From: Candidatus Latescibacterota bacterium
GTDB lineage: Bacteria; Latescibacterota; UBA2968
DNA: 64,000 nucleotides
Reading direction: 5' to 3'
Assembly (NCBI GenBank): GCA_965198115.1
Contig: OZ240241.1
Location: 7,872,001 to 7,936,000 of the forward strand
The notes under the pieces are model-generated. The model made no database searches, was not told where the DNA came from, and saw nothing but the letters and a program-made list of their open reading frames with translations. The translations under genes were made by a program, and so were the position numbers. Of the stretch, positions 31,855 through 58,665 are shown piece after piece. Position 1 is the stretch's first letter; each line of letters begins with the position of its first letter.

Positions 31855-34074
31855 TCAACTCAGCAGGTTCAGCATTTCGCGATCCTCTCTCCGCTCAGCC
31901 ACTGCCCGCGGCGTTCCCCACGTCGATCCTTCGGGCGCATCCGGATCGGCGCCTTGCTCGATCAGAAACTTGACCATTTCGGGCTGACCGCGTCTGACAG
32001 CCTCCGCCAGTGTAGTCCCGCCGTGCTCCAACTCCACAGCGTCGACATCCGCACCGTTTTCGATGAGAACCCTCGCCGTCTCGACTTTCCCGGCCCGCGC
32101 GCAACTGTGCAGGAACGTCTTGCCGATCCAGTTGGGCCGATTCACGTCCAGGCCGTGATCGATCAGCTTCTGCGTCTGTTCGGGAGGCGGGACATTTCCG
32201 CCGTAGATGCTCGACGGAGCGATCTCTTTCAGTCGGTCGCCAAAAATTTCGATGAAGAGATCGAATATCTCCGGATCCTCGTGACCCAGGATCTCGTGTG
32301 TGAATACGAGTTCACTACCCGACGGCCCATCCGATTTCGTCTGGGCAATCAGTTCTCTCTTCTGAGCCCGCAATCCTTCCTTGATCTCATCAGCCGTCAT
32401 GTTCCAGACCGGCATGAACGCGCCGTGCTCACGCAGAAGGTTCTGCATAGGCTCACACGAATCGGGATATTTGGCTTCGACGATCGTAATGCAGGACCCG
32501 CTGGAATCGGAGCTCTGGTTCGGGTCCGCCCCGGCGTTCAACAGCAGCTGGGCAATTTCGATATGATTCCCTTCAGACGCCGCGAACAGAGCGTGACCCT
32601 GAGGAGCCAGATCTTCAGGCAGATTGGGATCTGCCCCGCGTTCAAGAAGCACCTTTACGGCTGACAGCCGCCCGTGCTTCGCTGCATAAAACAAGGGACT
32701 CTGGTTGTGAGCATTCAGCCTGTTGGCGATCGAGGGATCTTCCTCGAGCATCGACTCGATGCGTTCGACATCACCCAGCGCGCAAGCCGTACAGAAGTCG
32801 TACGTGGCGCCCCTCGCCAGAAGGTACCCACTAACGATCCAGGGGTTCCTTATTGCGTCCCCGGACAGGTCGCGCCTCCACCGATATCCGTAAGACCCGT
32901 TGAATGACAGGAGTAACGGGGTCTGCCCGTCGGCGCGACGCGCATCGATATCCGCACCTGATTCAAGAAAAACGTCAATCAGAGCCAGTTGCCGGGTGAG
33001 TGCAGCCCAGTGGATCGATCCGTTTCCCAATGCATCCGAAGCAAACACGAGGTGGGGATCGCTCGCCACGATCGATGAGACCCTATTTGCGTCGCGACCC
33101 TTGATCGCGTCTCCCAAACGTTCGAAATCCGGATCATAACCGAAGCGTTCAGTCATTGCCGCTTCAAGAAGTCCCTTCACCGCCCCCTGGCCCCGTTCCT
33201 CGGCAACACGCAGCATCTTGTCCCACGAGTCGTACAGGAACCGGGACTGTCCAGGATCCGCCCCGTGCTCCAGCAGCAACTGGACCACGTCCGCGTGCCC
33301 TTCCCGCACCGCCATATGAATCGGAAACTGATACCAGTGCTGTGCATTGACGAGCCGTGGATCCTGATTGAGCAGTGCCTTCACTCGGACGATGTCCCCG
33401 GCCGCACTCGCACAGAACAGGGCCCAGGCATCACGCCCGTCGAGCGCCTCGACTCCGTAAACGTAATGATCCGTGGCCATCGACTTCGGCTGCGTCAGTT
33501 GATGAACTCGGTCTTCGAAATCCTTATTCCTGGAAGGTCTTTCGCCGTCGAATCTCTCTTCCGCCATCGCCACAATCCCTTCCTTCATTCGCTTCCGTGC
33601 CCCCCGCAACCGGTTGTTGACGGTCGTCACAGTCAGGCCCAGGAAGCGCGCAATGTCATCGTGTGAGTGGTGCCCGAAGTAGAACATCGTCGCCGCGATC
33701 CGTTCCTCCTCGGGCAAGGCCGCCAGGACACGAATCACCTCATCGTTCCGCTCGTCCATCTCGACCGTCAACGTGGGGGAGCCCACGACAGCATCGATGT
33801 TGACGTCGTGTCGATCCCGTCGTGTAAACCGTGTCGACCGCGTAAACACGAGGCGACGCATCCATCCCGCGAACGCAGCGGGCTCGCGCAACCTCGGCAT
33901 CTCCAGCCAGGCCGACACGAAAGCTTCCTGGGCCGCATCCTCGGCCAGATGGAAATCCCCGATTACCGAGAAGGCATATCCCACTGCCATATCCTGGAAT
34001 CGTCGAACAAGGTCGTTAAACGCGTCCCGATCCCCCGTCTGCGCTCGCACGACGACCTGCTCGAGTGGAACCAC
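31855..34074 (-). CDS. ECF sigma factor fused to C-terminal ankyrin repeats
   Basis: Region 2 AEDAAQEAF..FAGW; region 4 IARFLGLTVTTVNNRLRGARK; multiple ankyrin repeats (FPIHMAV, GQTPL, QSPLFYAA, GKTFLH). Confidence 0.9.
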   Translation of the reverse strand: MVPLEQVVVRAQTGDRDAFNDLVRRFQDMAVGYAFSVIGDFHLAEDAAQEAFVSAWLEMPRLREPAAFAGWMRRLVFTRSTRFTRRDRHDVNIDAVVGSPTLTVEMDERNDEVIRVLAALPEEERIAATMFYFGHHSHDDIARFLGLTVTTVNNRLRGARKRMKEGIVAMAEERFDGERPSRNKDFEDRVHQLTQPKSMATDHYVYGVEALDGRDAWALFCASAAGDIVRVKALLNQDPRLVNAQHWYQFPIHMAVREGHADVVQLLLEHGADPGQSRFLYDSWDKMLRVAEERGQGAVKGLLEAAMTERFGYDPDFERLGDAIKGRDANRVSSIVASDPHLVFASDALGNGSIHWAALTRQLALIDVFLESGADIDARRADGQTPLLLSFNGSYGYRWRRDLSGDAIRNPWIVSGYLLARGATYDFCTACALGDVERIESMLEEDPSIANRLNAHNQSPLFYAAKHGRLSAVKVLLERGADPNLPEDLAPQGHALFAASEGNHIEIAQLLLNAGADPNQSSDSSGSCITIVEAKYPDSCEPMQNLLREHGAFMPVWNMTADEIKEGLRAQKRELIAQTKSDGPSGSELVFTHEILGHEDPEIFDLFIEIFGDRLKEIAPSSIYGGNVPPPEQTQKLIDHGLDVNRPNWIGKTFLHSCARAGKVETARVLIENGADVDAVELEHGGTTLAEAVRRGQPEMVKFLIEQGADPDAPEGSTWGTPRAVAERREDREMLNLLS

Positions 34075-37262: not shown

Positions 37263-37425
37263 TCAAGCGCCTTCACGTACGGTTGTGACGATGATGTTCT
37301 GGCTTTCCTGACAACTGACGACTGGTTCCCGGAGCCTGTCTCGAGCGAAGGCGAGAGGAAGGCCGCGGGCCGTAGCAGGGAACCCTGACAACTTCATTGG
37401 CCGGCTGCCAGGCCGGCCAATGCCA

Positions 37426-37441
37426 TGGTACGAGGCTTGCA
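37426..37441 (+). promoter_or_regulatory. Putative sigma54 -24/-12 promoter
   Basis: TGGTAC-GAGGC-TTGCA versus consensus TGGCAC-N5-TTGC; 11-bp inverted repeat at 37395-37422 just upstream. Confidence 0.6.
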
Positions 37442-37561
37442 AAAGATGGTGGACAGACCCGTGGACACGGTAGAAAAGACGCGTGGGAAGCTGGAAAAGG
37501 GCCGACAGCCGGCTCGGCTCACGTGGGTCTACCGGAAAAACATCCCACCCAGGAGGAAGAA

Positions 37562-37744
37562 ATGTCCCCGGAAGCCATCCAGAGCCTCATTGAACTGTTC
37601 GGTGTCGAAAAGGGCGTCAAGATTCTGAATCTCTTCACCACGCAGAACGAAACAGAACCCGCTCCACTTCCGCATCGCCCGCGACCTATCCGGGCGCGTC
37701 GCCGTCGACTCCCCTCGGTCGAAAAAGAAACGATCAACGTCTGA
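37562..37744 (+). CDS. Small hypothetical protein (60 aa, MSPEAIQSLIELFGVEKGVKILNLF...), paralogue of 42352-42555
   Basis: Strong RBS AGGAGG; shared N-terminal motif; upstream promoter. Confidence 0.7.
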   Translation: MSPEAIQSLIELFGVEKGVKILNLFTTQNETEPAPLPHRPRPIRARRRRLPSVEKETINV

Positions 37745-38683
37745 TCACGCGTCGATGAATCCGGGCACGCTGAAATAGCGATCGCCCGAATCGCAGATGA
37801 TCGTGGCGACACGTTTGTTCGGGCCCAGTCTCCGTGCAATGGTCAACGCGACGAACACGTTCGCTCCGGCCGAAATCCCCGCGAGGATCCCCTCCTCCCG
37901 CGATAGGCGGCGTGCCATCGCGATCGCATCCTCGTCCTTTACGGTAACGATCTCGCTGTAGATCTCCTGATCGAGTACGGGCGGCACGAACCCTGCCCCG
38001 ATGCCCTGGATGCGGTGAACACCCTGACGCTCGCCGGACAACACGGCCGATCGCTCGGGTTCCACGGCCACGATCAGCACGTCCGGGTTTGCCTGTTTCA
38101 GAACCCGACCGACACCCGAGATCGTCCCCCCCGTTCCCACGCCGGCTACGAAGGCGTCGAGCCGTCCCTCGCAATCCTCCAATAGTTCCGGCCCTGTCGT
38201 CGTTGCGTGAATCTCCGGATTCGCCGGGTTGTTGAACTGCTGCGGCATGTACGTGTCTTCTGGGTTCGCGATCACGATTTGATTCGCCTTCGCGACCGCC
38301 CCGGTCATGTCGTCTTCTCCGGGCGTCAGCACGATTTCGGCACCGAAACTAACGAGTAGGTGCCGCCGTTCCCGACTCATCGTCTCCGGCATCGTCAGAA
38401 TCAGGCGATACCCTCTTGCCGCCGCCGCAACGGCCAACCCAATGCCAGTGTTCCCGCTCGTCGGTTCGACGATTGTCATCCCGGGGCTGAGCACACCACG
38501 TCGCTCTGCGTCGTCGATCATCGCGGCAGCAATGCGGTCTTTCACCGTATGTGCGGGGTTCATCTGTTCGAGCTTGACGATCACCTCGGCGTCCCCCGCG
38601 GTCACCACGTGGGACAGCCGGACGACTGGCGTCGAGCCGATCAAGGCGAGGATGTCATCAGTGACCTGATTCGGCGTGGCCAC
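37745..38683 (-). CDS. cysK: Cysteine synthase A
   Basis: NPAHTVKDRIA (PLP lysine), EPTSGNTGIG, PQQFNNPAN, GVGTGGT, HRIQGIGAGF. Confidence 0.93.
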   Translation of the reverse strand: MATPNQVTDDILALIGSTPVVRLSHVVTAGDAEVIVKLEQMNPAHTVKDRIAAAMIDDAERRGVLSPGMTIVEPTSGNTGIGLAVAAAARGYRLILTMPETMSRERRHLLVSFGAEIVLTPGEDDMTGAVAKANQIVIANPEDTYMPQQFNNPANPEIHATTTGPELLEDCEGRLDAFVAGVGTGGTISGVGRVLKQANPDVLIVAVEPERSAVLSGERQGVHRIQGIGAGFVPPVLDQEIYSEIVTVKDEDAIAMARRLSREEGILAGISAGANVFVALTIARRLGPNKRVATIICDSGDRYFSVPGFIDA

Positions 38684-38686
38684 GTC

Positions 38687-39160
38687 TCAGTCCTTCTGCG
38701 ACATCTGAGCAAGGGGCGCCGTTTCGCTGGCCCCATTCACCCGGGCGATGGCCTCACGGCCAAGTACGCGAATGTCCTCGTGAATCGCCGAATCGCCCAG
38801 ATCGTCGTGATCGCACCATCTGAATCCTTCGGCTTCGTGATCGCTCACCGATAGCGCGCCTCCGACCACACGAGCAAAGTAAATCAGGTCGATGTGTTGA
38901 TGATCCGGCGTGATATTTTCTAACAGGATGCACTCCGGGCGACCCAGGACTTCTACGTCGCCCAACGGCATCCGAGGGGATAGCAACCGAACTTCGAGCC
39001 CGGTCTCCTCCAGAACTTCGCGGCAGGCGGCTTCATCGGGCAGTTCGTTTGGGTCGATATGCCCACCCGGTGGAAACCACGCCCCGATCTTCCGATGGAA
39101 AAGCAGGAGAGTCCGTCCGTCCTGGACGATAAAAGTAGTGGCGGTAAAGTCGCGGGTCAT
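38687..39160 (-). CDS. NUDIX hydrolase
   Basis: Nudix box GGHIDPNELPDEAACREVLEETG. Confidence 0.92.
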   Translation of the reverse strand: MTRDFTATTFIVQDGRTLLLFHRKIGAWFPPGGHIDPNELPDEAACREVLEETGLEVRLLSPRMPLGDVEVLGRPECILLENITPDHQHIDLIYFARVVGGALSVSDHEAEGFRWCDHDDLGDSAIHEDIRVLGREAIARVNGASETAPLAQMSQKD

Positions 39161-39328
39161 GGGCTGGCGGCGGCGTGTTGAAATCCGCTCGGAATATATG
39201 CCCGGCAAAGGGCCCCATCAACCCCTAAGCCCTGAATTTGGGGCACCATACGTTCGTGGGCGCCTTCTTGACGGAGCGGCGAACCGGCAATATCCTAGAT
39301 GTATAGGACCAACGATCAAGAGCCCGAC

Positions 39329-42191
39329 ATGATTGCCAATCTCTTCACAAAAAGAGCTCATCGTCGAGCCGTTTCCTCGCAGGCCCAGGGCCTGGAGCGG
39401 CTGCAGACCTTTCGCGTCGACTCGGCGAACTGCACCCTTCTCACCACCGCCGAGGGAAACGAGGTCAACGAAGACATCGGCCAGGTGTCGTTGTTCCAGT
39501 CCCGAGGTCAGCCGCTGATCGAAGACCAGTCCGTTTTTCTGACCACGCCGGACGGCCTCAAAGCCGAGGATCGGGATCGTTTCAAAGGACACGGTGAGAC
39601 GATCAGGTTGTGGTTCCTTCACGACCGGATCCCCAGGGTCGTGGACGTCGTCGTCGAGGAACGCATTCAAATCAAGGCGGGGAGCCATCCCGAACTCAGA
39701 CCCCGCTCGGGGGCCGGGTTCCGTGTCCGCTTGGCGACCGACGTCACCAAACAGGACAACCGGAACTCGCTTCGATTTTCGCATCGCCCCGGCGGTGGTT
39801 CTCTCCCGGTCTACTCGCAGATCATGTTCGACGTCTTCGTGACCCGAACCAACGTCGAGTTACCCACGGAGGGCGCGATTCCCCCGTGGATCGAAGATGT
39901 AAATATCCTCCCCCACACGACCCCCGATCCGGCCGACACCACGTCCTTCGAACCCGAAGACCTGGTCAGCCGGTTCAAGGACGGCATGCGGGTCAACCCG
40001 GTCGAGGATCGCACGGTTCACGTCAGCAAACCCTACCTGGACGAGCGATTCAACCGCGGGCTCCTCCTCGAGCTCGGTTACTCTGGCGTATTGGGGCTTC
40101 GAAGCGATGAAGTGGGTCGTACGCTACACATCAAGAAGCCCATCCTGTCCCGGACCAAGGATCGAAGGGATCCCCATCATCTGACGCTCGGGGACCTGCT
40201 CATTCTTCACTACGGCTCGCGGGCCCCTCTATCCGGGAAATACGACTACTGCCAACTGGTTACAGAGATCGTGAAAGACGGGCTGGAAAACATCACGATC
40301 AAGCCTGTGGCAACGGAGGCGATCGAAGGTGGAATGAGGCTGGGACTGATTGACTTCAGCGTGAATGGCTTTCGATTCGAGGCTACGCCCGATTTTGGGT
40401 GTTGTGCCTATCGTAGTTGAAACTTAGAGGGCTCCAAACTTACGTTGGGTAGACGTGTAGGAGCGTATACCCGTAAGAAAGGAGCCCAGATGGAGAAGCT
40501 ATTTGCAGGCGATGGTGAAGTCAAGGTTGAGGGCGATGTCATCGATTTGGAGACGCGTTTGTCGGTGATCCAGGCGTTGATCCCGTTGGGTCTGGAGGCA
40601 GTGGCAGACCTCCTCCAGCAGGAGGTCGAGCAGCTCGCAGGCGTTCGGTATGCGCGCAAAGGTTCGGAGCAGGCGCATCGTCGGTGGGGAAGCCAGAAGG
40701 GATCCGTGTATCTGATGGACCAGAAGCTCCCGTTAGACGTTCCCCGGGTGCGCGACGTCGAGGCCGACGCAGAGGTTTCCCTGGCTGCATACCGGGCTCT
40801 ACAGACGCCCAAGAAGACGGACGAGGGGCTGTTGCTTCGTGTTCTCAAGGGGATCTCGTGCCGCAACTACAAGGCCTGTGCCGAATCGGTTCCAGAAGCG
40901 TTTGGTATCTCAGCGTCCTCCGTCTCGCGGCGGTTCATCAAAGCCACCGCGAAGAAGCGGAAGCAGTTCCAGGAGCGTCCCCTCGACGACTACGGCTTCG
41001 TGACCCTGTTCATTGACGGAAAGAGCTTTGCCGACGAAGAGATCGTGATCGCTCCGGGGGTCACGATGGACGGCCAGAAGATCCCCCTGGGCTTCGTCGA
41101 ATCGGCGACGGAGAACGAACGGATCTGCCGCCAGCTGATCCAGGACCTCATCCGGAGAGGCCTGTGCTACGACCAGGGCCTTCTCGTTGTGCTTGACGGC
41201 TCAAAGGGACTCCGCAGTGCTGTCACCAAAGCCCTCAAAGGGTATGTGCGCGTGCATCGCTGTCAGTGGCACAAGCGCGAGAATGTCGTCAGCTATCTCC
41301 CGGAGAGGGAACGTCCAAGAGTTCGACGGAAGCTCCAGAAAGCCTATGACTGCGACACCTACGAGGAGGCAAAGGCCGCACTCGAATCACTTAAACCCGA
41401 ACTGAAGCTGATGAATCAGTCTGCCGTAACGAGCCTCGAGGAAGGCCTGGAGGAAACCCTGACCCTCCACCGGCTGGGTATGCTCCCATTCCTGAAACGA
41501 AGCTTCCGAACCACCAACTGCATCGAAGCCCTCAACAGCAGGACCGGCGAGCTCACTCGGAAGGTCAGACGCTGGAACAACTCTCCCCAGAGACACAGAT
41601 GGGTGGCTGCCGCACTCCTCGACATCGAACCTCGCCTGCGACGCGTGAGCGGATACAAACATCTTCCCCTACTCAGGCAAGCACTGAACAAAGATCTGAA
41701 TCTCGACAACGAACAGAATGCTCAAAAGAGAGCCTGACCAAACTACGGGGCCCGATGAGTTTTCAACTGACTATGGGACTTGACCCGATTTTGTCCGCTA
41801 TGGAGCTCCCGAAGCAACGAACCATCCGGTCGCCGAACAGCTCGAGGCACTGCAGACGCACCTGTTGCTGTTCGCATTCTACCCCCGGCTGCGATTCTCG
41901 CGAGAAATCGAACCGTATCGACCCATCCTGCCCAAACGCATCAGCGTACTTGGGCAAATCGTCCGAAGTGAAATCGATTGGGAGGATGGGGAACAGAAAC
42001 GAGGGCGATTCAGAAACTTCGGCGTCAAGCTTATGTACGATCCCGTCGAATACGCACAGGACGAATTCCGACATAGTCGGTGGGAAATGATCCGCCCGTT
42101 CAAGGAAAACCGGCATTTCAAGGAAGTGCACAAAGCGCTCAACGGGCTCATCGCGTTTCTCGAAAGCCACGCCAAAGAAGACAAGGATTGA
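39329..42191 (+). pseudogene. Atypical PilZ-domain (YcgR-like) protein interrupted by IS256
   Basis: RxxxR (QDNRNSLRF) and DxSxxG (IDFSVNGFRF). Removing the IS restores ...ATPD-FVRYGAPE...LLLFAFYPRL in frame to 42191. Confidence 0.7.
40398..41785 (+). mobile_element. IS256-family element B (transposase 40490-41737)
   Basis: 8-bp TSD CGATTTTG at 40390-40397 and 41786-41793; imperfect IRs ending AGTTGAAA; VPRVR, FIDG, LDG, HRCQWHK, RTTNCIE. Confidence 0.92.
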
Positions 42192-42321
42192 CACAGACGA
42201 CAGATACAGAGGACAGAACACCGACCAATCGATGTTGCGCTATAGTTGCGATGGTGGGGCCGCCTCGGTTCTTGTCACTGGTCAATGGTCACCTGTCGCT
42301 GGTCAGTCCCTACCGGCATAC

Positions 42322-42352
42322 AAAAGAGGGGCGCGACAATCGCGCCCCTCTT
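42322..42352 (-). terminator. Intrinsic terminator
   Basis: AAGAGGGGCGCGA-loop-TCGCGCCCCTCTT, followed by TTTT on the minus strand right after the stop of 42352-42555. Confidence 0.8.
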
Positions 42353-42555
42353 CAGAAACCTGCTACTGACTTGATTCTACTGTTCAGCCCCGGGTTCCCG
42401 TGCCCAGAAAAGAACCTCACATTTTCTCGAACGAAGTGAATGGCCCGCCGCTCAGGAATCATCCCGAGATCCCGAGCTCGCATAACGTTCAGCAGGTCCA
42501 GACCCTTCACAAATCCATACTTCTTTACCAAATCCTCTGAGTGGTATCGAACCAT
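42352..42555 (-). CDS. Small hypothetical protein (67 aa), paralogue of 37562-37744
   Basis: RBS AGGAGG, terminator, shared motif LVKKYGFVKGLDLLNV. Confidence 0.72.
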   Translation of the reverse strand: MVRYHSEDLVKKYGFVKGLDLLNVMRARDLGMIPERRAIHFVRENVRFFSGHGNPGLNSRIKSVAGF

Positions 42556-42768
42556 AACCCCCTCCTAGCGTCGCTAATTTGGTGGGGAGGTTTGTTCCCT
42601 TTTGGGAAAGCATCTCTGGGCTCTCGAATCACGCGACAATCGAACGACCTCGTCACCTCCTGTGGTTGCCTCACCGAGGCCACATTGCCGGTCCCAGCAT
42701 TGCCGCTCCGTTCTCGGGCGAAGGGGCAACGTGAAAGCATTCAGAAACGCTCAGGCATTATGCAATAG

Positions 42769-42948
42769 TCATAGCCCTCCAACTGAAGAAGCCAGGTCGA
42801 GCTTGAGACGGGACCGAAATGAAAACAGGTCCTTCTTGGACGGGAGGATCTTCCGATGATCCGCCCCCGATCCGAGGACCTGAAACAAATTCGGCCCATG
42901 CGCATAACGCCGACCCGGGCTGAAGGTGTGAACATCCTGTTTAACCAT
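42769..42948 (-). CDS. Small hypothetical protein (59 aa, MVKQDVHTFSPG...)
   Basis: RBS AAGGAGG at 42955-42961; lies downstream of a sigma28-like promoter. Confidence 0.55.
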   Translation of the reverse strand: MVKQDVHTFSPGRRYAHGPNLFQVLGSGADHRKILPSKKDLFSFRSRLKLDLASSVGGL

Positions 42949-42999
42949 CTTTGCCCTCCTTGGCAAATGGTTGGTGGTAACTAATACTACCGAGTTGTA

Positions 43000-43026
43000 G
43001 TATCGGTGCTTCAGCCAAAAGCTTTA
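43000..43026 (-). promoter_or_regulatory. Putative sigma28 (FliA) promoter
   Basis: TAAAGCTT-N11-ACCGATAC versus consensus TAAAGTTT-N11-GCCGATAA. Confidence 0.65.
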
Positions 43027-48308: not shown

Positions 48309-49315
48309 CTAGACAAAATGGTCGTTCGACTCTCCTCTTACAATCGTGACCTGCCCGGCCTCTTCCAGTTGACGAACGGTCTGAACGACGCGCAATTGAA
48401 CTTCCTCCACGTCGCTCAAGCGAATCGGACCGGCAAAATCCATTTCCTCTTTCATCATCTGACCGACGCGATCCGACCGTTCGCGAAAACGCGTTCTTTC
48501 AGCTCGTCGTTCCCGCCCTTGAGCGCGATGGCGAGATCGTGGGAATCCACCTCGCGCAGAATCATCTGAATCTCGCGATCGGTCAGCTGGGCAATGTCGT
48601 CGAACACGAACATCTTGTTACGCACGTGCTCGGCCAATTCCGGGTCGTGTGCGTCCAGTCGCTCGAGCACCGCCTTCTCCGTCGTTCGGCCCGTTCGGTT
48701 CAGAATCTCCGCGACGGCCTTGGGCCCGCCGATCTCCGTCACCTGCCCCGACAGAATCGCTTCGAGTTCACCGGCGAGACTGTTTTCGAGGTCTCTCAAC
48801 ACTTGGGGAGAGATGTTCTCCATCTGCGCGATGCGAAGGGCCACGTCGGCCTGGAGCTCTTCGCGTAAACCGTTCAGGACACCCGCGGCCTGATTCACGT
48901 CCAGCTGTGAGAGGATCGGGGAAATCGTCTGTGGGTGCTCCTTGCAAACAAAAGGAATGATTTGGGCCGGGTCGACGTTGCGCAGCATGTAGAATCCACT
49001 CGCCGTCGTCGAGTTGACCCGGTCGAGCAGGTTTTGCGCCTTTCGAGGCCCGACGGCCAGTTCCAGGGCTCCCCGGGCGAAGTCCATGCCACCCTGGGAA
49101 ATGTATTGGCCGGCGATCAGCATCTGCTCGAACTCCTCGAGCACTTCGTCTTCCTGCTCCGTCGTCACGACATCGAGTTCGCTGATCGATTGGGCGATCT
49201 GCTCGATCTCGAAATCGGACATGTACTTCATCACCTCCGCGGTCGTCTCCTGACCCAGGGCGATCATCAGAACCGCCACTTTTTCTTTCGCTTCGAGACC
49301 TTCGGCTTCAGCCAC
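48309..49315 (-). pseudogene. fliG: Flagellar motor switch protein FliG, 1-nt deletion near 48478
   Basis: KVAVLMIALG, GGMDFA, EHPQTI, GGPKAVAEILN, MFVFDD. The shifted tail DRVGQMMKEEMDFAGPIRLSDVEEVQ...LEEAGQV ends at TAG 48309; restored length 335 aa. Confidence 0.9.
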
Positions 49316-49401: not shown

Positions 49402-49417
49402 TGCAAAGCCTGTACCC
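49402..49417 (-). promoter_or_regulatory. Putative sigma54 promoter of fliG
   Basis: GGGTAC-AGGCT-TTGCA with correct GG/GC spacing; similar to 37426-37441. Confidence 0.5.
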
Positions 49418-54912: not shown

Positions 54913-55276
54913 AAAGCACTGACGGAGAAAAGTAGGCCGTCTCCAGCCTCACGAGGGAGCGGGTGCCGTGACTGGAAGCACTCGCGGGGTATGCACGGCC
55001 GAAGTTCACTCCCGAGCTGCTCAGCTGAACCCTTGCCTCCGTAGTTCTCACAAGGTTGCCCCAGCAAACTCGCGCCTGCATCAGCCAGCGAGCTTTGCCG
55101 GGCAAGCCGTCCGAAGGATGGCCATAGGCTGAGCCGGGGTCGTTCCACGTCATCGGAACGGACAGTGACGGCTGTCCAAAGTGGCGGCCCGACCCCACCT
55201 GGTCGGGAACGCAATTAGGGTGGTACCGCGGAAGAGCTCTTTCGTCCCTATCTGGATGAAAGAGCGTTTTTCATTT
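54913..55276 (+). promoter_or_regulatory. Phe T-box riboswitch (transcriptional)
   Basis: Stem I with GA motif and AGTA loop-E; specifier TTC at 55005-55007; T-box AATTAGGGTGGTACCGCG at 55213-55230; terminator 55236-55265 followed by a U-tract. Confidence 0.93.
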
Positions 55277-55286
55277 GGGGATCCAC

Positions 55287-56843
55287 GTGCCCGACGTAGA
55301 CCTTTCATCACTCCACGCGCTGGAAGTCAGAACCCTGCGGGGTTTCGAACACGCGCCCGAGGCCGTGCAGCTGGATACAGACCTCGAAGCGTCTTCCGGA
55401 CTCACCGCGGGGCAGCTCCGTCGAGCAGTGGAGTGGCTCGTTTCCAAGACGCTCCTGTCCGTCGCATCGGAGGAGGCCCGTCTCTCCGTTTCCCTGAGCG
55501 ATCAGGGCAGGCGGTTTCTCGACGTGGGGTGCACACCCGAATCGGAACTGTTGCGCCGTGCAGGCGAGGGCCCGGTCACACTCGCCGACCTTCAGAGCGA
55601 CGACCGGTTCGACCGAGGCGATTGGGGCAGCGCATTCGGGACTCTCAAGAGAGATGGCATCATCGACAGCTACGGACCCAACATCGTCATCAAGAACGAC
55701 GAGCAGGCCACCTTCTACACGCGGACGATCGTCACCGACCTCATCGGCCGGTTCAAAGAGGATCCCGATGGCACCATCTCGATTGAAGCCTTCCCGCAGG
55801 AATTGCGGGGCCACATCGAAGAATCCTCCAAAGGGCGGGGGAAGGGAAAGTCACCCGTTCGGCTGAGCGAGCAGACCGTTCGCGGCTACTCGCTCACTGA
55901 ATCGGGGCGCGGAATCCTCGAGTCGGTCGTCGATCAGAACCTGACGGGTGAAGAGGTCAGCCGCCTGACGTCTGACATGCTTCAGAGTGGATCGTGGAAA
56001 CGAGTCGGATTCAGACGCTACGACCTCTCGATCAAACCGCCCCGCATCCAAACCGGACGACACCATCCGTATCGGGCCTACCTCGACGAGGTGCGCCGAA
56101 AACTTCTATCCCTCGGGTTCGAGGAAATGAAGGGCCCGCTCGTCGAAACCGAATTCTGGAACATGGACGCGCTCTTCATGCCTCAGTTCCACGCGGCCCG
56201 AAACATCCACGACGCCTACTTCATCAGCGACCCGAGCGAGTCGAAGGGCCCCGAGGAACCTCACTTCAGCCGTGTCGGCCAGGCACACCGGGATGGGGGC
56301 GAAACCGAGTCCCGCGGATGGCGATACCCGTTCGATCCGGAACGATCACGCCGCCTCCTCATGCGAACACAGGGTACAGCACTCTCCGCTCGGGCTCTGG
56401 CCGGGGACGCCAACATTCCCGGCAAGTATTTCGCGATCGCCCGATGCTTCCGTCCCGATGAGATCGATGCCACTCACGGCGCCGAATTCAACCAGGTGGA
56501 AGGCATCGTCCTCGGCGAATCGATCAACTTCCAATCTCTCCTCGGTCTACTGAAACTGTTCGCCCTCGAGGTCGCGGAATCCGAGGACGTACGCTACGTA
56601 CCCGACTACTTCCCGTTCACCGAACCCTCCGTCGAGCTTCAGGCCAAACATCCCACGCTCGGTTGGATCGAGCTGGGCGGTGCAGGCCTGTTCCGCCCGG
56701 AACTCACGAACCCCCTCGGTGTCGACGTGCCGGTCATCGCCTGGGGACTGGGCGTCGACAGAATGGCCATGGTCTCCCTCGGCGTCACCGACATCCGGGA
56801 CCTGTTCAGCACCGATCTCGATTACCTGCGCAACAAGAGATAA
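55287..56843 (+). CDS. pheS: Phenylalanine-tRNA ligase alpha subunit, archaeal/eukaryotic type
   Basis: Long N-terminal extension; FWNMDALFMPQFHAAR, FRPDEIDATHGAEFNQVEG, YFPFTEPS, WIELGGAGLFRPE, AWGLG. Confidence 0.95.
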   Translation: MPDVDLSSLHALEVRTLRGFEHAPEAVQLDTDLEASSGLTAGQLRRAVEWLVSKTLLSVASEEARLSVSLSDQGRRFLDVGCTPESELLRRAGEGPVTLADLQSDDRFDRGDWGSAFGTLKRDGIIDSYGPNIVIKNDEQATFYTRTIVTDLIGRFKEDPDGTISIEAFPQELRGHIEESSKGRGKGKSPVRLSEQTVRGYSLTESGRGILESVVDQNLTGEEVSRLTSDMLQSGSWKRVGFRRYDLSIKPPRIQTGRHHPYRAYLDEVRRKLLSLGFEEMKGPLVETEFWNMDALFMPQFHAARNIHDAYFISDPSESKGPEEPHFSRVGQAHRDGGETESRGWRYPFDPERSRRLLMRTQGTALSARALAGDANIPGKYFAIARCFRPDEIDATHGAEFNQVEGIVLGESINFQSLLGLLKLFALEVAESEDVRYVPDYFPFTEPSVELQAKHPTLGWIELGGAGLFRPELTNPLGVDVPVIAWGLGVDRMAMVSLGVTDIRDLFSTDLDYLRNKR

Positions 56844-56846
56844 TAA

Positions 56847-56969
56847 ACCACGGAGGGCACCGACCAAGACACCCCGGCCGATCACCAAACCTGTCATAAT
56901 CTCGAAAGACCACACGGTACTCCCTCTTTCGCATTTGCATTCTCCGTGTCCTCCGTGTTCTCCGTAGTA
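56847..56969. repeat. Inverted 9-mer repeat cassette between pheS and pheT
   Basis: ACCACGGAGGGCAC... and TCTCCGTGT-CCTCCGTGT-TCTCCGTAG; same family as the repeat at 11230. Confidence 0.65.
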
Positions 56970-56994
56970 GGTTTTCATTCCATCAGGATCAGCA

Positions 56995-58665
56995 ATGCCC
57001 ACGATATCCGTCATCAAACACGACCTCGAACGACTGGCCGGAAAGACCTACGACCTCCCGGAGTTGGAGCTGGCTCTCGAACACGCCAAGGCGGAGGTCA
57101 AAGCCGAGGGCGACGAGTTGCGTGTCCAGCTCAAGGACACGAATCGACCCGACCTCTGGTGTGCCGAAGGACTGGGTCGCGTGCTCAAAGGCTACCGCGA
57201 AGGGGTTTACGACGACTATGTCTATCCATCCTCGGGCGGGGCGGATCGTCGAATCGATGTGGATCCGGGCCTTGAGCACATCCGGCCCTTCGTATCCGGT
57301 TTCGTCTGTCGCGGGGTCGAAATCGACGACGACGCACTCAAGCAACTGATCGAAACACAGGAGCGACTCACGGAAAACTACGGCCGAGGGCGCAGCTCGA
57401 TCGCCATTGGGATCTACGACGCATCCGACATCGTTTACCCGATTCGCTACGAAGCCGTGACGCCCGATACGCGCTTCACGCCTCTCGACGCGTCGACCGA
57501 GATGAGTCTTCGTCAGATCCTGGCCGAACACCCGACCGGACAAACTTACGCGCACCTGCTCGAGGGATTCGATCGGTTTCCCCTGTTGAGAGACGACAGG
57601 GATGAGGTCCTTTCGATGCCACCCATCATCAACAGCGCATCCCTCGGGCGCGTCGAAATCGGCGACGCTCATCTCTTCGTCGAGGCGACCGGCACCGTCT
57701 TGGATCACGTGCTGCACAGCATGGCCATCTTCGCCGCGAACCTCGCAGATCGAGGTGGAACGATCGAACCGGTCACGACGCACTATCCCTACGACACGCC
57801 ACGAGGACGTGAAGTCCAAAGTCCCGTAGACATGGGAACGCCGACGACAGCGACCTTTCATCAGATCAACGAAACCGCCGGGACCGAACTGAGTTCGGAA
57901 CAGATCGAAACGGCCTTGAGAAAGATGGGGTATCGGGATGTCACAGCCGCCCCCGAGGCCGTCACGGCGACGTCGCCCCCCTATCGGGACGACCTGCTCC
58001 ATCCGGTCGACATGATCGAAGACATCATCATCGGCGTGGGCTATGAGGCGTTCGAGCCCATCATGCCTCGCGACTTTACGATCGGAAAAGCAGCGCCCCA
58101 GGAAGACCTGTCCGATCGCATTCGTCATCTGTTCGTGGGCTGCGGCTTCCAGGAGCTTTTCCTGCCCGTACTCGGGTCCGTCGAAAACCAGACCACGCGA
58201 ATGCGGAACGAACACGCACCCGCGATTGTCATCGCCAACCCCATGTCCGAACACTACGGGTGCGCCCGCTGGTCGCTGATTCCGGGTCTCCTCAGCGTCG
58301 AGGAAACGAGTCGCCGGGCGATCTATCCGCACATGCTCTTCGAGGTCGGAGAAGTCACCAGAAAGGATGTCGATCACGACTATGGCTCTCGAACCGACAT
58401 CCTCGTCACCGCCTTGGAGGCTTCGGAGGATGCCAACCTCTCAGGCATCCAGAGTTACCTCGAAGCCTTCGCCTACTACTTCGGGTTCGAATACGAACTC
58501 AGGGCCATCGGCCACCCGACGTATCTGTCCGGACGCACGGGCGAGATCGTCAGCCGCGGGCAGACCCACGGCGTGATCGGTGAAATTCACCCGGAGGTAC
58601 TCGACAACTGGGGAATCACCGTTCCTGTCAGCGTCTTCGAAGTCGACATTCGCATAGCACATTGA
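56995..58665 (+). CDS. pheT: Phenylalanine-tRNA ligase beta subunit, archaeal/eukaryotic type
   Basis: MPTI start, NRPDLW, LSMPPIINS, PPYRDDLLHPVDMIED, GEIHPEVL; 556 aa with no OB-fold or anticodon-binding domain. Confidence 0.95.
   Translation: MPTISVIKHDLERLAGKTYDLPELELALEHAKAEVKAEGDELRVQLKDTNRPDLWCAEGLGRVLKGYREGVYDDYVYPSSGGADRRIDVDPGLEHIRPFVSGFVCRGVEIDDDALKQLIETQERLTENYGRGRSSIAIGIYDASDIVYPIRYEAVTPDTRFTPLDASTEMSLRQILAEHPTGQTYAHLLEGFDRFPLLRDDRDEVLSMPPIINSASLGRVEIGDAHLFVEATGTVLDHVLHSMAIFAANLADRGGTIEPVTTHYPYDTPRGREVQSPVDMGTPTTATFHQINETAGTELSSEQIETALRKMGYRDVTAAPEAVTATSPPYRDDLLHPVDMIEDIIIGVGYEAFEPIMPRDFTIGKAAPQEDLSDRIRHLFVGCGFQELFLPVLGSVENQTTRMRNEHAPAIVIANPMSEHYGCARWSLIPGLLSVEETSRRAIYPHMLFEVGEVTRKDVDHDYGSRTDILVTALEASEDANLSGIQSYLEAFAYYFGFEYELRAIGHPTYLSGRTGEIVSRGQTHGVIGEIHPEVLDNWGITVPVSVFEVDIRIAH

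Follow-up and report, generated by a model that had tools for sequence, protein, structure and literature searches.

Two paralogous small-protein genes with sigma54- and sigma28-type promoter motifs that co-occur with flagellar genes in Latescibacterota

Genes A, B and C

We describe two small genes, here named A and B, from a 64,000-nucleotide (nt) stretch of a Candidatus Latescibacterota genome (contig OZ240241.1, positions 7,872,001 to 7,936,000; "the window" below means this whole stretch). Gene A (37562..37744, + strand) encodes a protein of 60 amino acids (aa), with a conserved 27-residue predicted helical hairpin followed by a variable tail, and gene B (42352..42555, - strand) encodes 67 aa, in which a hairpin like that of A is followed by a conserved third helix. 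A first-pass annotation of this DNA had reported both open reading frames (ORFs), and their coordinates, their peptides and an AGGAGG Shine-Dalgarno sequence before each are as it described them. It had also placed B in a sigma28-like unit ending in a terminator; site and terminator are indeed there, but the first gene of the unit had been overlooked. This gene, C (42769..42948, - strand; 59 aa), begins 51 nt past the sigma28-type site, with B next, and has a conserved start (MxxQD), a C-terminal motif and a conserved ribosome site. C lies upstream of B in all 15 primary C-B units, although the copy in one genome (G056) is truncated, and it has 74 database homologues, none of them in a family.

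A six-frame search of the 8.4-Mb genome finds the motif shared by A and B just twice, the pattern being derived from A and B themselves. As the pairwise similarity is weak (6/23 identities by BLAST, E 0.001), homology was tested at the family level. A profile of 100 family cores retrieves A at E 4e-16 and B at E 2e-13 from this genome (G000), where the next match has E 2.9, and by this search the two are its only family members. Comparison of the A and B profiles gives a probability of 96.7% (E 4e-10), and the profile alignment scores 37.1, where 100 column shuffles reach 14.5 at most. Among 61 genomes of relatives, including G000, B is present in 15 and A in 16 (profile matches at E < 0.001). 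The ratio of nonsynonymous to synonymous substitution rates (dN/dS; Nei-Gojobori, pooled over 7-9 pairs that are kin and hence non-independent) is 0.04 for the core of A, 0.11 for the whole of A and 0.14-0.20 for B; for C it is 0.17 (8 pairs). By their sequences, then, A and B are real, paralogous genes under purifying selection.

The opposite view would be that the ORFs are incidental, as leader peptides or as parts of CsrA-titrating RNAs, or that their likeness is due to chance. The low pairwise identity and several GGA motifs in the C-B transcript fit such a view, but dN/dS is well under 1 for A, B and C, the profile homology lies far above that of shuffles, and there is no Rfam match. Furthermore, the count of ANGGA exceeds that of shuffles (p<0.05) in only 1/14 units, and two near-complete genomes without a CsrA match (G042 and G058) retain C-B. 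We rejected the CsrA-sponge version on these last two observations, and consider incidental or chance origin as a whole extremely improbable.

The residues Gly14, Gly18 and Asn23, which stand at equal distance from the start Met in A and B, are found in 142/142 distinct A/B rows, Gly14 being the alignment anchor. A combined A/B profile finds 130 proteins at 90% clustering, without a Pfam domain among the 120 matches listed, and 40 matches at 50% clustering (1.84 billion representatives), of which 38 are stand-alone proteins of 58-154 aa. The other two are long repeat proteins and were judged to be false rather than fused A/B forms. When one genome per species was scanned with the A alignment pattern (185,579 species), 14 loci were confirmed, all from the Latescibacterota group, and in all searches made here A/B were found only in Latescibacterota. 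Three subtypes can be told apart, namely A (27-residue core and variable tail), B (core and third helix) and B' (with an added N-terminal helix). In a 30-column tree the A clade forms one well-supported side (100/99), and A and B each include members from three families, f1, f2 and f4, so the duplication predates these families. The Arg-containing tails noted earlier are no family trait: the net charge of the A tail has a median of +1 and a range of -7 to +9 (n=115), and the second half of B is a conserved predicted helix and no tail.

That no known family could be recognised for A and B holds throughout our searches of Pfam, NCBIfam, PHROGs and PDB sequences, in which no match came near the cut-off (best values E 0.011-0.019 for single members, or E 0.46). 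The ESM Atlas likewise yielded no usable match, although a blank in that resource carries no weight. "Unannotated" is accurate only in this sense, as the genes are already called as hypothetical proteins in public collections. A literature search, with subscription journals and bioRxiv supplements outside its reach, returned nothing on the A, B and C genes. The AlphaFold2 model of B has helices at 6-13, 15-29 and 35-46, with a predicted local distance difference test (pLDDT) of 84-88 across residues 11-40, and fold searches with this model gave generic helical matches only (best Z 5.0; Foldseek E at least 2.4). The core shared by A and B is predicted to form an amphipathic hairpin whose invariant residues are small or polar, and it has no catalytic or membrane signature.

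Predicted promoters and co-occurrence with flagellar genes

A sigma54-type -24/-12 site (TGGTAC-N5-TTGCA; 37426..37441, + strand) precedes A. Its likeness to the site before the neighbouring fliG copy (GGGTAC-N5-TTGCA; 49402..49417, - strand), pointed out in the first-pass annotation, is borne out, and the fliG site is present in 6/6 relatives read. A strict sigma54 site lies 125-139 nt ahead of the start of A in 14 of the 15 primary A orthologues, and the 15th has a degenerate site at the equivalent place; the strict pattern occurs in 0.12% of random 160-nt windows. The C-B unit is headed by a sigma28-type promoter (43000..43026, - strand; TAAAG-N14-xCCGATA, here TAAAG...CCGATAC), as are all 15 primary C-B units, against 0.015% of random 500-nt windows. 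The two promoter types do not mix in the primary set: no sigma28 site is found before A and no sigma54 site before C-B units. In G000 the C-B site has the top score of a matrix made from these sigma28 sites, similar sites precede five of the six flagellin genes, the sixth having a sigma54 site (read by eye), and the sigma28 pattern is enriched over a reversed control in five genomes. No shared upstream activator motif is visible, by eye, in 14 A promoters. After B follows an intrinsic terminator hairpin (42320..42353, - strand; z -4.4), and a simple scan finds a hairpin with a T-run downstream of 12/16 B-type genes. It is likely from these motifs that transcription of A goes with that of the early flagellar genes driven by sigma54, and transcription of B and C with that of the late ones driven by sigma28.

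The structured leaders proposed for A and B do not hold as a conserved feature, with z -1.3 to -1.5 for the A leader and +0.9 to -3.0 across 14 A orthologues. The spacer between C and B (window 42556-42768; also L041, L042 and L004) contains a stretch, AACCTCCCC, that is conserved in genera g1 and g2 and not in other genera. It has two alternative pairing partners, the Shine-Dalgarno sequence of B and a GGAGGT motif further upstream (fold z -2.0), and could possibly be a translational switch.

In a set of 161 Latescibacterota genomes, 56 belong to families f1, f2 and f4, 75 to family f3 and 30 to other families. A/B genes are carried by 17 of the 161, all in f1, f2 or f4, and within these three families the 17 carriers are the same 17 genomes that have FliG (FliG_N), the remaining 39 having neither. 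Flagellin matches are present in 16 of the 17, and both subtypes in 13; the other four, with a single subtype, have fragmented assemblies. Genus g8 contains both states, a flagellated genome with A/B genes (G042) and a non-flagellated one without (G032). In three non-flagellated genomes (G032, G035 and G004) the flanks of the locus, with DUF1844, LptE, NUDIX or CysK, are joined up, and A, B, C, the PilZ-like gene Z that lies between A and B, fliG and both promoters are missing from the closed locus. In G033 the flanks are kept with other, non-matching DNA between them, and in G014 the locus is rearranged. RpoN, on the other hand, is present in 58/61 relatives and is retained where A is lost.

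Gene C also tracks flagella, as far as its sequence relatives tell. A C-related protein (HH 91%) is found in 14 of the 75 f3 genomes, 13 of which have FlhA, and in genus g27 of this family it is present in exactly the 4/30 genomes that have FlhA. A sigma28 site lies upstream in 10 of the 11 f3 loci read, the 11th being at a contig end. This f3 gene (L175-L186; e.g. G113:C5:25864-26052) is single-copy and strongly conserved, encodes 63 aa without a Pfam match, and has a glycosyltransferase-like gene next to it.

The proposal of a new family placed at two tiers, sigma54 and sigma28, of a flagellar cascade is thus upheld in its core by purifying selection, by promoter motifs kept across three families, by co-occurrence with FliG and by syntenic deletion. 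We find it very probable that A and B belong to the flagellar regulon in a broad sense.

Candidate functions of A and B

A role in binding, rather than an enzymatic one, suggests itself for A and B, since the 27 residues of the A core are too few and too hydrophobic to work by themselves and bear no catalytic or membrane signature. The genomic neighbourhoods of the six extra A/B paralogues point further: five adjoin signalling genes (two have an RsbW-like kinase and a sigma54 activator as neighbours, two follow an XRE(-HDOD) regulator and one follows a receiver gene), and three carry a sigma54 site, either their own or that of an operon. On these grounds we tentatively favor the reading that A and B are binding regulators of the flagellar control circuit, acting early as A and late as B, and give it a probability of roughly 40%. 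A would be made early with the sigma54-driven flagellar genes, and B, with C, late with the sigma28-driven ones. Both, as helical hairpins, would attach to some component of the control circuit and modulate it; candidate targets are sigma54 activators, sigma/anti-sigma and partner-switch proteins, and HDOD or receiver proteins. One binding surface would in this way appear twice, A offering its minimal version and B a later version extended by a third helix, and the effect on the target would differ between the hook-basal-body stage and the filament stage. A complex prediction for B(1-54) with A(1-36) scored 0.00, with the partner fold uncertain and without controls, and carries no weight either way.

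Two of the paralogue loci (L058:888-2288 and L059:2053-3495, in G005 and G050) share the order XRE helix-turn-helix regulator (with HDOD in one), A paralogue, degenerate receiver-like gene. In a third (L060, G054:C443) the paralogue is of B type, lies under a sigma54 site and is followed by two tiny ORFs with ribosome sites, one of them Arg-rich with a hydrophobic end.

Several points weigh against a regulator of the flagellar circuit. The targets named are candidates only, and the paralogue neighbourhoods number only six and may mirror the abundance of signalling genes in these genomes. None of the primary A, B or C genes lies within a flagellar operon. The sigma54 site alone is not flagellum-specific: G000 has 71 strict matches, which is no excess over chance overall, many of them ahead of non-flagellar genes, and the assignment of A to the flagellum therefore rests on co-loss. 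The related genomes behind the co-loss are non-independent, and the A/B losses fall in four genera and were not tallied on a tree. The first promoter scan used a general consensus, and the stricter patterns were set after the sites had been seen. In G000, A, B and C are intact despite a broken fliA, fliG copy of the window and Z and four broken flagellins, which is a weak point because short genes are small targets. Lastly, A/B are present in 0/75 f3 genomes although 31 of these have FlhA, so the family is not needed for the flagellum as such; matches in f3 are at chance level only (five genomes at E <= 2), with none next to the 12 f3 C loci, and none were found in the 30 genomes of other families, whose flagellar status was not checked.

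The absence from 31 FlhA-positive genomes also fits another explanation, that A and B are co-expressed with the flagellum and have a non-flagellar job in motile cells (surface, adhesion or c-di-GMP (cyclic di-GMP) state), possibly being exported by way of the flagellar apparatus like Campylobacter Fed/FspA proteins. The sigma54 sites of G000 lie upstream not only of flagellar genes but also of polysaccharide and signalling genes, the f3 form of C lies upstream of a glycosyltransferase-like gene, and small sigma28-driven genes dispensable for motility have a precedent in Campylobacter (PMC9856085). Yet A sits under an early promoter and the additional paralogues are grouped with genes for cytoplasmic regulators. 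Signals for flagellar export usually vary in sequence and lack structure, unlike the N-terminus of A/B, which is their most conserved, predicted-folded part. We regard a non-flagellar job as unlikely.

A and B could alternatively be accessory factors of the motor or of export, timed by the two promoters, which bind for instance the expanded FliG set or PilZ brake-like proteins. Several FliG copies (six loci in G000) and several paralogues of gene Z, which are found only in flagellated genomes (19/61), would offer such partners. In six relatives a fliG headed by a sigma54 site is found about 6 kb away from the A-Z-B-C block, and one B' gene directly precedes the gene for a membrane protein with an end that is PilZ-like by eye (no family match). 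However, A/B have no sequence resemblance to FliG (HH 0.4%), and both the FliG and the Z expansions occur also in f3, which has no A/B. Gene Z, which is convergent with B, stands under a separate sigma70-like promoter; it is absent between A and B in G007, and in f4 both A and B and gene Z are unlinked. This also bears on the earlier description of A and B as bracketing a PilZ gene. Z is indeed PilZ-like and lies between them, but it is split by an IS256-family insertion sequence (IS), predicted to be transcribed separately, and set apart from A by cysK and NUDIX genes; the bracketing is thus a shared neighbourhood, incidental and not a unit, and the link of A/B to the PilZ gene is only positional. 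We consider an accessory role in motor or export unlikely, to about the same degree as a non-flagellar job.

A more specific proposal is that the hairpin mimics helix 1 of sigma54 region I and, working in trans, restrains the sigma54 holoenzyme or its activator by feedback. A starts with MSPEAI[QH]SL and region I of the RpoN of this lineage with MAPQLI[QH]SL, and only 38 of 5.1 million 12-residue genome windows score equally high. In E. coli sigma54 that proline caps the inhibitory helix RI-H1 (PMC9770992). Judged from the sequences, the resemblance is real but short: it spans 9-12 residues (6/9 identities), misses G14/G18/N23 and is absent from B, and S/T-P-E helix caps are common. For RpoN residues 14-45 the HH comparison gives P 0.05-0.06 and a probability of about 1%, the A profile places RpoN 179th among 7266 proteins whereas the B profile does not list it, and, as said, RpoN is retained where A is lost. 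We find such mimicry highly improbable. A likeness, drawn by eye, of B to the long helix of sigma54 was not significant (P 0.22) and was dropped.

The idea that C is a "missing third helix" of B drew nothing from a first 14-row profile. With larger sets and the f3 form the local P is 0.03-0.05 (3 and 5 of 60 shuffles equal it; globally 7/150), and among single rows three f4 B rows reach p <= 0.001, most of the 33 rows being unremarkable. The likeness of C, or of the f3 C-like gene, to B is hence borderline. On an extended version, A, B and C would all derive from one ancestral sigma28-driven gene, of which f3 keeps the single-copy form, and would now make up a three-component timer feeding back on sigma54 and sigma28, with the first helix of A as a trans copy of the sigma54 inhibitory helix. 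We hold this to be quite improbable; if true, flagellar hierarchies would have a checkpoint mechanism of a new kind.

Returning to the binding-regulator reading that we favor, its setting is a familiar one. Polar flagellates have flagellar hierarchies in which sigma54 is followed by sigma28, and RpoN, FliA, FlgM, CsrA and both promoter types, all present in the genomes of the G000 group, are common to these and to the present lineage, in which A/B and C appear as extra, lineage-restricted outputs. FliX and FlgM are small binding regulators of such hierarchies. Caulobacter SciP, a small inhibitor that binds CtrA, may serve as a model for how A/B could work, without membership of its family (PMC8973945). 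A/B differ from SciP, FliX and FlgM in matching no Pfam or NCBIfam model, and G000 has two FlgM matches of its own (C1:3832894 and 5004186). The Campylobacter Feds and FspA resemble A, B and C in being lineage-specific, in lying outside the flagellar operons and in standing under flagellar sigma factors (PMC9856085). No sequence relationship between the two groups was detected; A/B are one family under both sigma54 and sigma28 motifs, as predicted promoters, and their host lineage is free-living and uncultured. Small lineage-specific proteins under flagellar sigma factors are an already known kind of system, and what is new here, at the level of sequence, is one family under both tiers and a second new family, C, in the sigma28 unit.

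Flagellar hierarchies are known from a few cultured phyla, and here a whole uncultured class has two undescribed small-protein families, A/B and C, that promoter motifs and the pattern of loss connect with the flagellum, A/B having been duplicated onto both the early and the late promoter. The function of these proteins would be cheap to test in vitro, as they are tiny and conserved and have a short list of candidate partners. The filter used here (a conserved sigma28 or sigma54 site, a small ORF and co-loss with FliG/FlhA) could reveal more flagellar small proteins in uncultured phyla.

Gene Z, flagellar decay and neighbouring genes

Gene Z consists of a 5' part (39329..40396, + strand), with a sigma70-like site upstream (39268-39296), and a 3' part (41785..42191, + strand), separated by the IS256-family element (40397..41784, + strand; 1388 bp) with an 8-bp target duplication (40389-40396 / 41785-41792). 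Short-read contigs stop at the IS borders and no IS-free joint was found. Intact, Z would encode about 484 aa, a YcgR/PlzD-like PilZ protein with RxxxR and DxSxxG motifs, which read KRSSLR or NRNSLR and DFSVNG in all eight rows covering them. Its model (mean pLDDT 52, the C-terminal half being of low confidence) suggests an N-terminal split barrel, and the best Foldseek matches of the model are 2rde (VCA0042/PlzD; E 1.1e-3, TM 0.37 of target), 1yln and 5vx6, with MotI and MrkH also among the best, and an atlas lead gave PilZ/PilZN3 at 0.86-0.88. Z shares both motifs and, as tentatively modelled, the N-terminal split barrel with YcgR/PlzD (VCA0042), MotI/DgrA, MrkH and PP4397, and differs from them in its length, in the approximately 200 residues between the motifs, in having no PilZ match in Pfam and in being broken here. 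It is probably, by sequence and predicted fold, a YcgR-type protein of an expanded, flagellate-only family. In another genome of the same genus (G001) Z is broken too.

Between A and Z lie a cysteine-synthase-like PALP gene (cysK; 37745..38683, - strand) and a NUDIX hydrolase gene (38687..39208, - strand), both bystanders, cysK being retained in non-flagellated relatives. The order A-cysK-(NUDIX)-Z-B-C is found in nine genomes of f1 and f2.

The flagellar system of G000, an IS-rich genome, is decaying. The gene fliA is frameshifted, and contigs of a possible source sample agree with the assembly; four of six flagellins are broken, and the fliG copy of the window (about 48312-49315) has a frameshift near its 3' end (decay sites G000:C1:4521226-4521893, 369340-372425, 773743-775568 and 2509157-2510348, and window 48312-49315). 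As fliA is frameshifted, the late tier is probably inactive in this strain. FliG and flagellin genes are multiplied and scattered, with six to seven flagellin loci beside the FliG loci of G000, often standing alone under a sigma54 or sigma28 site that belongs to the one gene, and every flagellated relative has 2-18 FliG_N matches. G042 and G058 lack a CsrA match though they are flagellated and most flagellated relatives have one.

The IS256 element occurs at about 100 other places in G000; about 30 copies are full-length and nearly identical, and a second subfamily shares 89% identity. The window also holds ISL3, DDE_Tnp_1_4 and further Mutator-family transposases at about 11.9-17.2 and 23.1-27.3 kb, and an ECF-type (extracytoplasmic function) sigma factor fused to ankyrin repeats (31855-34074; 739 aa). 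At 55275-58665 it encodes PheS (522 aa) and PheT (556 aa, with a PhetRS_B1 match), whose sizes and domains are nearer to the archaeal/eukaryotic-type enzyme than to the usual bacterial one.

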